From assembly GCA_963667035.1 (NCBI GenBank), contig OY762964.1, forward strand, positions 2,176,001 through 2,240,000: DNA of 64,000 bases. Reading direction: 5' to 3'. The DNA comes from Candidatus Cloacimonadales bacterium (GTDB taxonomy: Bacteria; Cloacimonadota; Cloacimonadia; Cloacimonadales; JAFGVF01). Each line of letters starts with the position of its first letter. Position 1 is the first letter of the stretch. Made by a program: the position numbers. Positions 39,001-42,000 of the stretch are shown piece after piece.

Positions 39001-42000
39001 AAAACCTTCAGTAATGATTATTTTAGGGTTTATCGATCTAATGACCTCATTGGTGTAGAACTTGGCGGTTCCGTGAAAAATATCATTGCCATAGCTGCTG
39101 GTATAACTGTAGGCTTAGGACTTGGTGACAATACCATGGGAGCTCTTTTAACGAGAGGAGTAGCAGAAGTTAAAAGACTTGGAATAGTTATGGGTGCAAA
39201 TCCCGAGACATTTCTCGGACTATCGGGAATTGGTGATCTTATTACAACCTCTATGAGTAAACATAGTAGAAATAGATATGTTGGTTTCGAGATAGGAAAG
39301 GGTAAAACACTTACGGAAGTTTTGTCATCAATGCAGATGGTTGCTGAAGGTGTTGATTCTACTGTTTCCGTACACGAATTGAGTAATAAATATGAAGTGG
39401 AAATGCCAATTACAGGTCAAGTGTATGAAGTGTTGTTTAATGAAAAAGACCCTAAAGACGCAATTAGATCTTTAATGACAAGGTCTTTGAAAGAGGAAGA
39501 CTAGAAGCTAAGCTCCTAGTCCTCTAAAGTCTATATATGCTTTGTTTTTACTGTTTGTTACATCAGGAGTAACTTGTATTAATCTGTTATAAATCTTTTC
39601 AATCATTTCCTTATTATTATCTTCGGATGTATAATAAACAAACTGCTTTGCACTGTCATGTTTTATTGCTAAACTGACAATGTTCTCTCGAGGCTCAAAT
39701 AACAGAACCGAGAAAGAGTAAGTAAATATTATCTCTCTCATCACCTTTCCAAAGGCTTCTATTTCTCTATTAGAGTCACAGCAAGAATCTATGGACTCAG
39801 CTTCACTTATGTATTTCAGATAGTTATTCTTATCTTCTTTTAAATCACTATATCTAACAAAAAGCTTCTTTTTACCTATCTCAGGTGTTACTTGAACAAG
39901 GATTGTCTCCACTATACTTGGATTACCATTGTTACTAACTATAACATCTTCATACTCTATTCTCTCAAACTCCGATTGAATCACTTCGTATGAATTTTTA
40001 CCGAAGCTACTTGGGTCAATCGTTTTTATACCTAATCCTCTAAAGTCTAGAGTCTCACTTTTACACTCACTACAAGTTTTAGGAGTATAGCTGCTTAGTT
40101 TCATGTATACTTTAGCTACTTGATTATCTACATCCCTATCAAGAGCAAAGAAATCAAACGCTTTACCATCAGCTTTTCTTATAGCAATTCCGTATGGTTT
40201 CATCTCTTTCTCAATTAGCATAACTTCTGTGTTATCATTGAGTATAATCTCTTTAGATACCTTACCTACTCTTCTTATCTCTCTTAAGGATTCACATGTT
40301 GACCATATCTTACCATTCTTTACAATTGATTTTAACAAAGGTAATGCTTTACCCCTACTCCCTTTTAACTTTGTTTTCTTGTTTAACTCATCAATTGAGA
40401 ATATTAGAGTTTTGTCCTCACTCTTGTAGTTAACTATAACACTTACTTCTGTTATTATTTCTCTGGGATTATTAGGATTCCTTTTTGCGAAATGCCTGAT
40501 AGATTCATAGTCAGAGAGAATTGCTTCGACTTCATCACCGGACCCGGTAATAAAAGCTGGTGGAACTCAGCCTGATGCAAAAACATTTATTGTAAATAGA
40601 ACAGTTAAAACTAATATAACTACTTTCATTAGATCTCCTTTTGAAACTTTCTGATATGAAATAGCACGAGTACCCTCTTCACAATTCTCTTAGCCAACTC
40701 TTTTAATTCAAAAATATTAGCTACAGCAATCGTGAAATACTTCATTTTGGGATCTAAAGGCCATGATAACTCTGGGAATTTATAGCCCTCAGCTCTACCC
40801 CATTTGATGAATGCTAATATTGATTCCAAATATATTAGTTTCCTTTTGGGAAACCTTTTCCAGTAACGGGGTCTTCCTGGACCAAGATGTGCTAAATATA
40901 TCTCATTATCACTATCAAATTTACCACTTGTTAAGGGTGGCACCTCTCTTGAAAATGTTAGCAATGAGTTTAATACCGATTCATCTAATTGAGAATAAGC
41001 AGTAAGAGAGTAATCATAGGCTACACCGGTGTTGTAATTAGGCAATACTTTCATCATCTGCTTATGCCATTTCTCTATAAACCAAAGATAGTCTGTATGT
41101 ATAGATAGATTACCTCCGGCTACCGTATTCTTTCTCTGTGGACTATCTAGTTCATTAACATCTCTCTTCCATTGCTTAAGAATAATCATTGGAATACCAC
41201 CATATTCATCTTCACGGGTATAGTATTTTGAGAATACCCAACCGTCTTCTTTAGGGGATTTGAAACGAGCTGATAATGAGGGATTATCTTGCTTAAAGAA
41301 GGGAGTAATATCTCCAGTAGCAATGCAATCTCCATCAAAGAGACTGATTATTTCAAATCCGCAATCCTTAGCAGTAAGAATAGCTTCTGCTTTACGTGTC
41401 GTAGGATTCCTTAGATTACTCATATCAGCATCAAAAGTTCTTACATCTTCAAACTGTGAAAACAACTCTTTCTCTTCCTCAGATAAACCTACACATAAAA
41501 CATGTATATTAGTCTTTACTTTATAATATTTTAGAGACAGAATTAGGATAAATGTCGGTATTATATATCCATTGTCGGTAATTGTTACGACAACTGCCGA
41601 ATTTTTCATCTGACAACCCCCTTATTAGGTGTTAAAATAATGTAAATGCATGAAAAGTTGGCAATAAATAATTTTATGAATCTACTCAATATTGAGAATA
41701 TCAACAACCGGAAGTTCCGGTAAATACTCTCTAATAGTAGACGCTAAACCCTCACTATCTACATGATTACCATTAATTGCACTACTATTAACTGCTATAG
41801 CATTCATAAGGAACGGATATATTGTTTTAATATCCATCTCTTCTTGCATTAGTTTTACGTTAACAAGGTCAAGCTGGAGATTAAAAGGATGTTTGATTAT
41901 TATCTCTCCATGAAAATCCAGAAAATAACTACCAAGATTATGCCAATTCTTACCTGTAATTGCTCCCGGAATATAAATTCTATCTGGATAATACTCGTGA

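Follow-up and report, generated by a model that had tools for sequence, protein, structure and literature searches.

We find that a gene of a Candidatus Cloacimonadales bacterium (assembly GCA_963667035.1, contig OY762964.1) carries an in-frame UGA that is very probably selenocysteine (Sec), its best reading, and that the product is probably an exported SelB/SECIS-dependent selenoprotein, cut by signal peptidase I (SPase I), with Sec about two to seven residues from its mature N-terminus. Sec is the best reading because the TGA is present in five of five copies of the gene family, because selA, selB, selD and tRNA-Sec are all present in the genome, and because the GGUC loop downstream of the UGA is common to three other candidate genes. 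Together with a conserved hairpin and the occurrence of the GGUC loop and the UGA-G context elsewhere in the genome, this supports the survey's finding, which had read the UGA as Sec. The window analysed is a stretch of 64,000 nt whose position 1 is contig position 2,176,001, and coordinates count from that position.

Reading frame and family copies

The frame of the window gene (the G000 copy) and the features along it are listed in Table 1. Direct reading bears out the claim of the survey that the frame is open save for one TGA and that it holds two repeats of about 180 aa, each with a terminal DFRGLG. The length is corrected from 367 aa to 373 residues; the next in-frame ATG, GTG or TTG is codon 98 (TTG 40338), which is the start of database protein P0002, and the N-terminal extension is therefore 97 codons rather than the 91 given earlier. 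A start of translation at the upstream ATG 40629 is supported.

Table 1. Features of the window gene and related loci, with positions counted in the window unless a contig (C1) is named
Feature	Position	Strand	Remarks
Upstream, translationally coupled 326-aa gene	40629..41609	-	Syntenic in G113 and G111
Shine-Dalgarno-like AGGAG	40635..40639	-	5 nt ahead of the window-gene ATG; from sequence
Window gene	39508..40629	-	373 codons, ATG 40629 to TAG 39508; sole interruption is the TGA at codon 21
Start codon ATG	40627..40629	-	One-base overlap (TAATG) with the TAA of the upstream 326-aa ORF
Signal peptide MKVVILVLTVLFTINVFASG, codons 1-20	40570..40629	-	SPase I site probably after VFA
In-frame TGA, codon 21, read as Sec	40567..40569	-	TGA at the aligned position in 5/5 copies
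SECIS-like hairpin	40530..40555	-	11 pairs including G-U; codes for the peptide FITGSGDE
Hairpin parts	40555-40545; 40544-40541; 40540-40530	-	5′ arm; GGUC loop; 3′ arm
Tail and domain 1, residues 22-200	40030..40566	-	Alpha/beta domain; DFRGLG at its end
Domain 2, residues 201-373	39511..40029	-	Repeats domain 1 but lacks its CxxC; no signal peptide or Sec
Stop codon TAG	39508..39510	-	Read from sequence
Exported UxxC proteins of the genome	C1:1142257-1144125 and C1:726758-729688		GGUC tetraloop at +28, against +26 in the window gene

Five copies with an N-terminus are found in three genomes of one genus (G000, G113-1, G113-2, G113-3 and G111), with pairwise identities of 23–53%. Each has a signal peptide and a single in-frame TGA, followed by x-P-[PS] and conserved sequence, and in four of the five the TGA is followed by G. 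The survey had counted three such N-termini; to these are added the third tandem gene of G113 (G113-1), which reads …SAGSHSC-U-GPPPKYVEF, and the G111 gene, which does reach the TGA site (…NLFAQ-U-APPSFITGSD) and had been mistaken for a partial match that misses it. The G111 copy, which lacks about 46 internal residues and has a C·A mismatch in its hairpin stem, may be decaying. AGGAG-type motifs precede the starts in G111 and G113-1 as well, and the G113 copies are joined by ATGA and GTGA overlaps.

The family alignment continues across the UGA site, with coding constraint on either side. The 76 codons 3′ of the window-gene TGA are conserved and contain no ATG, GTG or TTG, and between G000 and G113-2 pN is 0.31 and pS 0.74 over the 76 codons after the UGA, compared with 0.45 and 0.73 over the signal peptide.

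No Cys homologue was found in 232 Cloacimonadota genomes, among 1.84 billion representative proteins or in a collection of 5.8 billion proteins, so that the same statement of the survey holds in these wider searches and the usual Sec/Cys test fails. The family proteins in the databases are all cut 3′ of the site (the gene callers start P0002, P0003 and P0005–P0007 after the TGA); any Cys homologue predicted at full length would therefore have stood out, and none did. A sixth homologue, P0004, is without its N-terminus and stands outside the count of five, and no further loci were found in metagenome contigs (searched with a 3-sequence alignment and P0004) or in genome contigs (searched with P0004). 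Also dropped was G018, where a weak match (E 0.007) covers residues 267–350 only and has no TGA. The five copies, coming from three genomes of one genus, are not independent, and they are fewer than the ten examples asked for in a passage of Haft and Gwadz (2022; 10.1101/2022.07.06.499078). Three sequencing runs contain the sequence; they share a single sample and study, from which the genome itself probably came, and no RNA run is listed.

The downstream hairpin and the selenocysteine machinery

A 70-nt fold from the window gene reproduces the energy of -14.2 kcal/mol reported earlier. Its stem, AUUACCG/CGGUGAU, is extended by G-U pairs to 11 uninterrupted pairs, and it presents a GGUC loop at +26 to +29 (the U of UGA being +1), i.e., 22 nt past the UGA; a review (PMC10778597) gives 16–37 nt as the distance of the loop after the UGA. 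In every one of the five copies the loop occupies +26 to +29 and has a G-U within it. Over the five copies 32 of 35 cells pair and three of seven pairs have changed on both sides, with slid controls at 18.5–69.6%, while between 25 and 127 of 500 pairing shuffles do as well as the real sequences. In G113-1 the hairpin lies at the same place despite a different peptide (YVEFDN vs FITGSG). The energy of the whole segment is no better than that of shuffles (z = -0.34; 70 of 200 fold as well). The survey had called the hairpin strong, and of this the hairpin itself and its energy are borne out, but not an energy excess over shuffles. When synonymous codons were resampled, the p value of the stem was 0.05 in G000, 0.63 in G113-1, 0.06 in G113-2, 0.018 in G113-3 and 0.88 in G111, and that of the MFE was 0.24, 0.006, 0.06, 0.09 and 0.82, respectively. 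We conclude that the hairpin structure is conserved across the family, with moderate statistical support. A search of Rfam returned just two rows, both at chance level (E 3.1 and 8.4).

The genome carries selB (327.9 bits vs a cut-off of 242), selA (526 bits vs 268) and selD (379 bits, above the curated cut-off), the last with one TGA of its own (...TAAG-U-GAKLGPG), and a tRNA-SeC (tca) was found by ARAGORN. TGA is at the same time an ordinary stop, ending 311 of the 2149 ORFs of at least 150 codons. A genome-wide scan yields 201 hairpins that combine a GGUC tetraloop with a stem of 4 or more, and only four sit 18–39 nt past a TGA in a read-through ORF: those of the window gene, of two exported [WT]-U-G-[YF]-C-P proteins and of one protein with a T9SS sorting domain. 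The two [WT]-U-G-[YF]-C-P proteins are weak matches to the Omp28-related selenoprotein (37 bits each) and have a Cys paralogue with WCPNCP. The UGA is followed by G in all four of selD and the three other candidates, as against 55 of 228 ordinary TGA stops. We infer that Sec would be incorporated at the UGA of the window gene.

A codon-usage screen for read-through ORFs gave at least 1806 candidates, of which at least 39 pass the stricter and at least 88 the looser threshold; these are mostly antisense shadow frames, and the screen served solely to choose candidates. Neither L021 (a 235-aa frame) nor the L022/L023 pair from this screen has a family match. Of the selenoproteins sought as SECIS references, no FdhA was found in the genome with TIGR01591 and no GrdA with PF04723, the latter being a weak blank, as the GrdA control matched no control genome.

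Signal peptide cleavage and the readings weighed

All five copies have [VL]F[AGS] one to six residues ahead of the U. Of 435 signal-peptide-like N-termini in the genome, 103 share this ending, which is the commonest there of SPase I type and often reads LFA cut before Q; [AGS]Q follows the hydrophobic core in 28 of the 435. The pattern expected of a secretory protein (n-region, core, small or neutral residues at -3 and -1) fits five of five copies with cleavage after [VL]-F-[AGS], the cleavage site and the SPase I call being made by our own rule-based script. We infer that SPase I cuts after [VL]F[AGS], and Sec would therefore be at about +2 in G111, +3 in G000, G113-2 and G113-3, and +7 in G113-1.

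The survey had placed Sec instead at the +1 of a lipobox, as the first residue of the mature protein. In such a lipoprotein, Lgt would turn the Sec into a diacylglyceryl-selenocysteine, with Lsp cleaving immediately ahead of it, and a selenolate should be a nucleophile at least as good as a thiolate; the Sec is also as far from the start as the Cys of a lipoprotein. Two copies, G000 (F-A-S-G-U) and G113-2 (F-G-A-G-U), pass the permissive PROSITE lipobox pattern, so that the two fitting copies of the survey stand, but they are now two of five and not two of three, and have A or G at -3. A family that served as lipid anchors would be expected to keep the lipobox in all copies, whereas the residues found before the U are G, G, N, Q and C, with N, Q or C thus in three of the five. 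Among the 111 signal-peptide-plus-Cys N-termini of the genome, its candidate lipoproteins, -1 is G in 34, A in 18 and S in 8 (60 of 111), N in 1 and Q or C in none, and -3 is L in 38, I in 21, F in 13 and V in 11 (83 of 111), A in 4 and G in 1. With an SPase I-type ending in every copy as well, neither Sec at the lipobox +1 nor Sec as the first mature residue is supported, the SPase I cut predicting about +2 to +7. We regard a selenium lipid anchor in the family as very unlikely. Among the papers listed by our literature search, none joins selenocysteine and the lipobox in this sense, with relevance judged by title. That Lgt and Lsp might accept Sec in G000 (A-S-G-U) and G113-2 (G-A-G-U) in particular, giving a selenoether lipid anchor of a kind never described, receives very little credence from us.

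Two other explanations leave Sec out altogether. The TGA could be a true stop behind a 20-codon leader or chance ORF, with the protein starting downstream (at TTG 40338) or the genes being pseudogenes, which we consider unlikely. Although TGA normally serves as a stop here and the gene callers begin all five database proteins named above past it, the 76 constrained codons of G000 would then stay untranslated, as would the 19–21 codons that separate the TGA from the next possible start in G113-1, G113-2 and G111 and that span the best-conserved motif, PPSFITGS. In G113-3 an ATG stands directly after the TGA, and that copy could begin there, without a signal peptide; nevertheless, a signal-peptide-like ORF with a Shine-Dalgarno motif or a stop-start overlap precedes the TGA in five of five copies. 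The apparent damage to the G111 copy and the absence of a Cys homologue would suit a stop as well, but a nonsense mutation would not recur at one aligned codon in five copies that differ this much. Alternatively, the UGA might be read through by a near-cognate tRNA as Trp or Cys, or by leaky termination helped by the hairpin. Plain read-through, too, can be favored by a UGA-G context together with a hairpin further on; the genome nevertheless has the complete Sec machinery, the window gene shares its GGUC loop (the SelB-binding loop of E. coli fdhF) and the loop spacing with the UxxC proteins, which have a Cys paralogue, and the UGA-G context is common to selD. We judge read-through of this kind very unlikely.

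We therefore favor the exported selenoprotein. Translation would start at ATG 40629, and the UGA at codon 21 would be recoded to Sec, aided by the GGUC-loop hairpin 22 nt downstream. The 20-residue signal peptide would route the protein through the Sec translocon, and SPase I would cut at the genome-typical ...[VL]F[AGS], giving the window protein a mature start of S-G-U-V-P-P.... Sec would then lie in a flexible, proline-rich tail ahead of a compact alpha/beta domain without a known fold, of which the window gene has two. As the UGA comes directly after the signal peptide, failed recoding would yield merely a 20-residue peptide.

Protein, relatives and biological meaning

Domain 1 carries Cys112 and C186-x-x-C189 (40074-40063). 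Domain 2 is 28% identical to it and aligns with a separate gene of the sister genome, G113-3, so the window gene arose by the joining of two tandem genes. Domain 2 does its work without a Sec, which counts against the Sec reading. A structure model, built on only 7 sequences, has a mean pLDDT of 76.5 and a pTM of 0.71, with residues 1–31 below pLDDT 50. Neither Pfam nor NCBIfam assigned a family to the protein, the one sub-threshold row being NAPRTase_C (16.9 bits vs a cut-off of 23.3), and with no NCBIfam match at E <= 0.01 the window protein lies outside NF045500 (cut-off 200 bits). A sequence search of the PDB with the family profile gave 0 matches at E <= 1, and the ESM Atlas gave no usable match with P0002. 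Searched with the 7-sequence model, Foldseek gave nothing in the PDB at E <= 0.001, and among 48,161 chains compared by VIA-align the highest Z was 4.3, with none at Z >= 5. As the model rests on 7 sequences, we do not claim a new fold.

The upstream 326-aa gene has no Pfam or NCBIfam match, and a single weak lead to glycosyltransferase family 8 (a match cluster at rank 15, 27% of whose members have PF01501). A link between this gene and Se-glycosylation was set aside, since its family looks much wider and adjacency alone spoke for it; a link to upstream lysine-fermentation genes, likewise based on adjacency alone, was set aside too.

The window family resembles genes of the SelB/SECIS type, with E. 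coli fdhF as prototype, in having an in-frame UGA, a hairpin directly downstream and selA, selB, selC and selD in the genome, and the loop of the window gene falls inside the distance range given in PMC10778597. It differs from the prototype in that it is without a Cys homologue and restricted to one genus, and in that its Sec would lie outside any recognisable redox motif or folded site, in a low-confidence tail behind the signal peptide. With the Omp28-related selenoprotein (NF045500) and the UxxC proteins of the genome it shares export, Sec early in the mature chain, the GGUC tetraloop and UGA-G, whereas the UxxC proteins have a thioredoxin-like W/T-U-G-x-C-P, the Cys paralogue with WCPNCP and T9SS sorting domains, all of them absent from the window family. 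Bacterial lipoproteins are similar in the length of the signal peptide and in a chalcogen residue about 21 from the start, and two of five copies pass the permissive lipobox; the family departs from them in having Sec and not Cys, in N, Q or C at -1 in three copies, and in a -3 atypical for the genome in the other two.

CU-motif selenoproteins (HgcA, the SAO system), as described in a passage of 10.1101/2022.07.06.499078, also have Sec in an N-terminal extension missed by gene callers, and the S-C-U-G-P-P-P of G113-1 is close to the P-C-U-G-P of HgcA given there; a link to metal is a resemblance only. The same passage mentions no signal peptide for HgcA. Unlike HgcA, the four other copies have no neighbouring Cys (none within three residues of the U, where G113-1 has CU), and we do not claim sequence homology. 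SelD, in a section of PMC13188914, has its Sec near the N-terminus and in a flexible loop, and the family would likewise have Sec near the N-terminus and in a flexible segment; SelD is, however, a cytoplasmic enzyme of unrelated sequence, with known chemistry and Cys homologues.

We can only guess, with low confidence, at what an exposed selenol might do. It could be an extracytoplasmic redox nucleophile, or a metal ligand, given that G113-1 has C-U-G-P and that three copies would expose NH2-X-X-Sec, or it could form a diselenide or selenenylsulfide cross-link that is stable in a reducing anaerobic envelope. A further, highly speculative idea is that Sec at mature position 2–3 and the free amino terminus together make up a new kind of site outside the cytoplasm, for metal binding or cross-linking.

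Provided that the UGA is Sec, the family is an uncatalogued one, although the family lists of PMC13188914 or PMC13326102 (BSepDB) could already hold it, and an exported protein would have its selenium right at the N-terminal end, in a flexible tail and not in a folded redox site. Sec families without a Cys counterpart escape selenoprotein searches built on Sec/Cys pairs and gene calls. The three other exported candidates, with no FdhA or GrdA found, suggest that proteins of the envelope or secreted ones are the main reason why the Sec machinery is kept in this lineage of Cloacimonadota. Such an envelope-centred use of Sec, if true, would shift the usual picture of bacterial selenium use.

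A conserved in-frame UGA in a small gene family

With its in-frame TGA read as selenocysteine (Sec, U), the window gene, which is g01717 extended N-terminally, begins MKVVILVLTVLFTINVFASG-U-VPPAFITGSGDEVEAILSDYESI... and has 373 residues by our recount, not 367 as in the survey's finding; the extension, put there at 91 codons, amounts to 97 relative to the database protein P0002, the next in-frame ATG, GTG or TTG being codon 98. The protein contains two repeats of ~180 residues, with DFRGLG at the end of each. Domain 2 aligns with G113-3, a separate gene of the sister genome G113 (locus L015, 2106-2717), so the window gene arose by fusion of two tandem genes, which still stand apart in G113; in the fusion the second unit lost its signal peptide, TGA/Sec and hairpin.

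Features of the window gene, its surroundings and further Sec-related genes of the genome (window positions, or contig positions where marked C1)
Feature	Position	Strand	Remark
Start codon ATG	40629-40627	minus	overlaps TAA of the upstream 326-aa ORF (TAATG)
AGGAG before ATG	40639-40635	minus	read from the sequence
In-frame TGA, codon 21	40569-40567	minus	sole internal stop of the frame
Hairpin	40555-40530	minus	11 uninterrupted pairs counting G-U, extending the core stem; GGUC scan: loop +26, stem 11
Domain 2	39511-40029	minus	aligns with G113-3
Stop codon TAG	39510-39508	minus	end of the frame
326-aa gene	40632-41609	minus	coupled to the window gene; no Pfam, NCBIfam or PDB sequence match
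KamB-like	41685-42704	minus	185.5 bits, below the cut-off of 210
Lysine 2,3-aminomutase (KamA)	42726-43991	minus
L-erythro-3,5-diaminohexanoate dehydrogenase (Kdd)	44061-45122	minus
Poly-gamma-glutamate genes	33474-38423	plus	PgsB, PgsC, poly-gamma-glutamate system protein; the region includes the three ORFs that follow
976-aa protein	C1:726758-729688	minus	...TAST-U-GFCP; loop +28, stem 7
622-aa protein	C1:1142257-1144125	plus	...TESW-U-GYCP; loop +28, stem 6
338-aa protein	C1:2102508-2103524	plus	...VYCLS-U-GVTPPG; loop +33, stem 5
Third paralogue	C1:2749011-2750402	plus	L030 751-2142
selD	C1:2882124-2883047		...TAAG-U-GAKLGPG

A six-frame search of 232 Cloacimonadota genomes gave matches in four, the window's own (G000) included, representing two of 66 genera. 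The match in G018 was set aside as weak (E 0.007, residues 267-350 only, no TGA). G113 carries three family genes, one more than first described, which are in tandem and translationally coupled: G113-1 (MKRVIIFFFMIMGGSILFSAGSHSC-U-GPPPKYVEF...), G113-2 (...ISLFGAG-U-APPSFITGSG...) and G113-3 (...SVFGSN-U-MPSSSIIGFG...). The single family gene of G111 had been thought not to reach the site, which it does cover (...INLFAQ-U-APPSFITGSD...). This copy (L019 1297-1728, minus strand) has an internal deletion of ~46 residues in mid-domain and a C·A mismatch in its hairpin, and may be decaying or reflect faulty assembly of this genome, which is 83% complete. All five family N-termini show the same order of a signal peptide, one in-frame TGA and conserved sequence.

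Beyond the genus the family is nearly missing, with five proteins at E <= 0.001 among 1.84 billion representatives and two among 2672 candidates from a collection of 5.8 billion proteins, all of them beginning after the TGA by the gene callers' choice. One, P0004, is a sixth homologue without its N-terminus. Neither these two collections nor the 232 Cloacimonadota genomes yielded a homologue with Cys in place of Sec. One subfamily (G000 domain 1, G113-2, G111 and P0004) is marked by a Cys conserved within STCES and by a CxxC towards the C-terminus; the other copies are without both, yet keep the Sec.

If translation began after the TGA, as the gene callers assume, the nearest possible start (ATG, GTG or TTG) would lie 76 codons downstream in G000, 19 to 21 in G113-1, G113-2 and G111, and zero in G113-3, where an ATG directly follows the TGA. 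The 76 codons of G000 contain PP[SA]FITGS, the motif best conserved across the family, and are constrained between G000 and G113-2 (pN 0.31, pS 0.74; 0.26 and 0.59 for the remainder of the domain). Every family copy has a start of its own, with a Shine-Dalgarno-like motif or an ATGA, GTGA or TAATG overlap with the preceding gene. A nonsense codon arising by chance would not turn up again at the same aligned site in five copies of 23-53% identity.

Hairpin and selenocysteine machinery

In the window gene, with +1 set at the U of UGA, +19 to +25 pair with +30 to +36 to form the core stem (AUUACCG/CGGUGAU), which encloses a GGUC loop at +26 to +29. GGUC is the SelB-binding loop of E. coli fdhF. 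The loop of the window gene begins 22 nt past the UGA; for SECIS elements of bacteria the published range is 16-37 nt (PMC10778597). The folding energy of -14.2 kcal/mol reported for this region was reproduced but proved no better than that of shuffled sequences (z = -0.34; 70 of 200 fold as well). Over the five copies, 32 of the 35 cells of the seven-pair core are paired, with both sides changed in three pairs, against 18.5-69.6% pairing in a slid-partner control; of 500 pairing shuffles, between 25 and 127 do as well on the measures used. In G113-1 a hairpin persists whose loop likewise sits at +26 to +29, although the peptide encoded there, KYVEFDN, is unrelated to FITGSGD. Synonymous-codon resampling of the region gave, for G000, G113-1, G113-2, G113-3 and G111 respectively, p values of 0.05, 0.63, 0.06, 0.018 and 0.88 for the longest stem and of 0.24, 0.006, 0.06, 0.09 and 0.82 for folding energy, so that the statistical support for the hairpin is modest.

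The genome, a single contig of 3.10 Mb with 35.6% G+C, encodes selB (327.9 bits, cut-off 242), selA (526 bits, cut-off 268), a tRNA-SeC with anticodon tca, and selD (379 bits), which has one TGA of its own; otherwise TGA serves as a stop, terminating 311 of the 2149 ORFs that are 150 codons or longer. A scan of both strands found 201 GGUC tetraloops closed by at least four pairs, 30 of which have a TGA 18-39 nt upstream and a start codon before that TGA. Four are in read-through frames with five or more codons ahead of the TGA and 40 or more behind it, namely the window gene and the genes of the 976-, 622- and 338-aa proteins. Signal peptides (read from the translations) and T9SS sorting domains were found in the 622- and 338-aa proteins, the two included in this family scan; the 976-aa protein is known here from a few residues before U and its NCBIfam match. 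The 622- and 976-aa proteins each have a weak match of ~37 bits to the NCBIfam Omp28-related selenoprotein (cut-off 200), and a third paralogue, with lipobox ...LLTISAC, has WCPNCP at the U site, thus supplying a Sec/Cys pair in a thioredoxin-like motif. 'Cloacimon' and 'Omp28' are absent from the review PMC13188914 by word search; the literature, supplements aside, gave nothing joining Omp28 with selenoprotein, and its sole match for Cloacimonadota and selenoprotein concerns tRNA-Sec. The frame of the 338-aa protein, whose T9SS sorting domain is C-terminal, is open only with one TGA read through, making it a further candidate exported selenoprotein, and the family scan gave no match at its Sec site.

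G follows the UGA in all four of selD and these three candidates and in four of the five family copies, which are related and do not count as five independent trials; after ordinary TGA stops it stands in only 55 of 228 (24%). UGAGGA occurs in four genes among selD, the three candidates and the family copies. Formate dehydrogenase alpha, FdhA (TIGR01591), gave nothing beyond a 25.7-bit fragment, and GrdA (PF04723) no match, a weak result since the same search was blank in every control genome too. The visible selenoproteome thus appears to consist of selD and exported proteins, which raises the prior for the window gene.

The earlier proposal of Sec is borne out on three counts: in all five copies the UGA is retained, with a signal peptide before it and coding sequence under constraint after it; the Sec machinery is present; and the hairpin is conserved and of the SECIS type of this genome. 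We consider it highly likely that codon 21 is so read, presumably by SelB-dependent insertion.

Lipoprotein or signal peptidase I substrate

The survey's finding had placed Sec where a lipoprotein has its lipid-modified +1 cysteine, perhaps as a lipid anchor. Directly ahead of U the five copies have G, G, N, Q and C. Our reference comprised 111 N-termini of G000 with a basic start, a hydrophobic core and a first Cys, a crude selection that includes some Cys inside hydrophobic cores; they follow the classical lipobox, with G 34, A 18, S 8, N 1, Q 0 and C 0 at -1, and L 38, I 21, F 13, V 11, A 4 and G 1 at -3. Three of five family copies (N, Q, C) therefore fail at -1, and the two that pass (A-S-G-U, G-A-G-U) have a rare residue at -3. 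Upstream of U, at a distance of one to six residues, all five instead carry [VL]-F-[AGS]; of the 435 signal-peptide-like N-termini of G000, 103 have this ending within positions 13-28, often with Q next. [AGS]Q follows the core in 28 of the 435, resembling the Bacteroidetes Q-rule for signal peptidase I substrates, which is reported not to be valid across the whole FCB group (PMC5837995).

Cleavage after [VL]-F-[AGS] would satisfy the -3/-1 rule in all five copies, with predicted mature N-termini S-G-U... (G000), A-G-S-H-S-C-U... (G113-1), A-G-U... (G113-2), S-N-U... (G113-3) and Q-U... (G111). On this rule-based view of the sequences, the family is very unlikely to be one of seleno-lipoproteins. 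The window protein would rather be exported through the Sec translocon and cut by signal peptidase I a few residues before the selenocysteine. We regard this whole reading, an exported selenoprotein with Sec near its mature N-terminus, as probable, with less assurance than the Sec itself; confidence in both is held at these levels by the lack of a Cys homologue and by the relatedness of the five sequences.

By title, the literature (supplements aside) offered nothing relevant joining selenocysteine with the lipobox. The available part of Haft and Gwadz (2022; 10.1101/2022.07.06.499078), whose criteria include at least 10 examples, describes CU motifs in N-terminal extensions, HgcA PCUGP being one, and no Sec at a lipobox. 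'Signal peptide', 'lipoprotein' and 'secreted' are all absent, by word search, from the prokaryotic selenoprotein reviews PMC9312934 and PMC13188914.

Structure, neighbours and possible roles

The window protein matches no Pfam or NCBIfam family and no PDB sequence. Domain 1 was modelled with AlphaFold2 (seven-row alignment; mean pLDDT 76.5, pTM 0.71). The model leaves residues 1-31, the signal peptide, Sec and PPAFITGSG stretch, below pLDDT 50, followed by a mixed alpha/beta domain; it gave no Foldseek match at E <= 0.001, the best by VIA having Z 4.3.

The order KamB-like gene, 326-aa gene, family gene and convergent gpsA is retained in G111; over the nearer flanks, which is the part read for G113, that genome retains a homologue of the 326-aa gene, the family genes and a convergent gpsA-like frame recognised by eye. 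Language-model look-alikes of the 326-aa gene are unnamed clusters from Cloacimonadota and Myxococcota and, in addition, one cluster with glycosyltransferase family 8 in 27% of its members, which is a weak lead for this gene. Lysine-fermentation genes (41685-45122) lie directly upstream of it on the same strand. On the other side, the poly-gamma-glutamate genes are followed by three ORFs (273, 350 and 94 aa) and then gpsA; the ORFs have no Pfam and no significant NCBIfam match, the 350-aa ORF giving one sub-threshold NCBIfam row. None of these neighbours gives the window gene a function.

Very probably, then, these genes form a new, genus-restricted family of exported selenoproteins with Sec near the mature N-terminus. 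With the UGA right after the signal peptide, failed recoding would cost only a 20-residue peptide. As to what the exposed selenol in the tail might do, we can only guess: it could serve as a nucleophile in redox chemistry, bind a metal (through C-U-G-P in G113-1 and NH2-X-X-Sec in three copies), or be the site of a diselenide or selenenylsulfide cross-link between paralogues.
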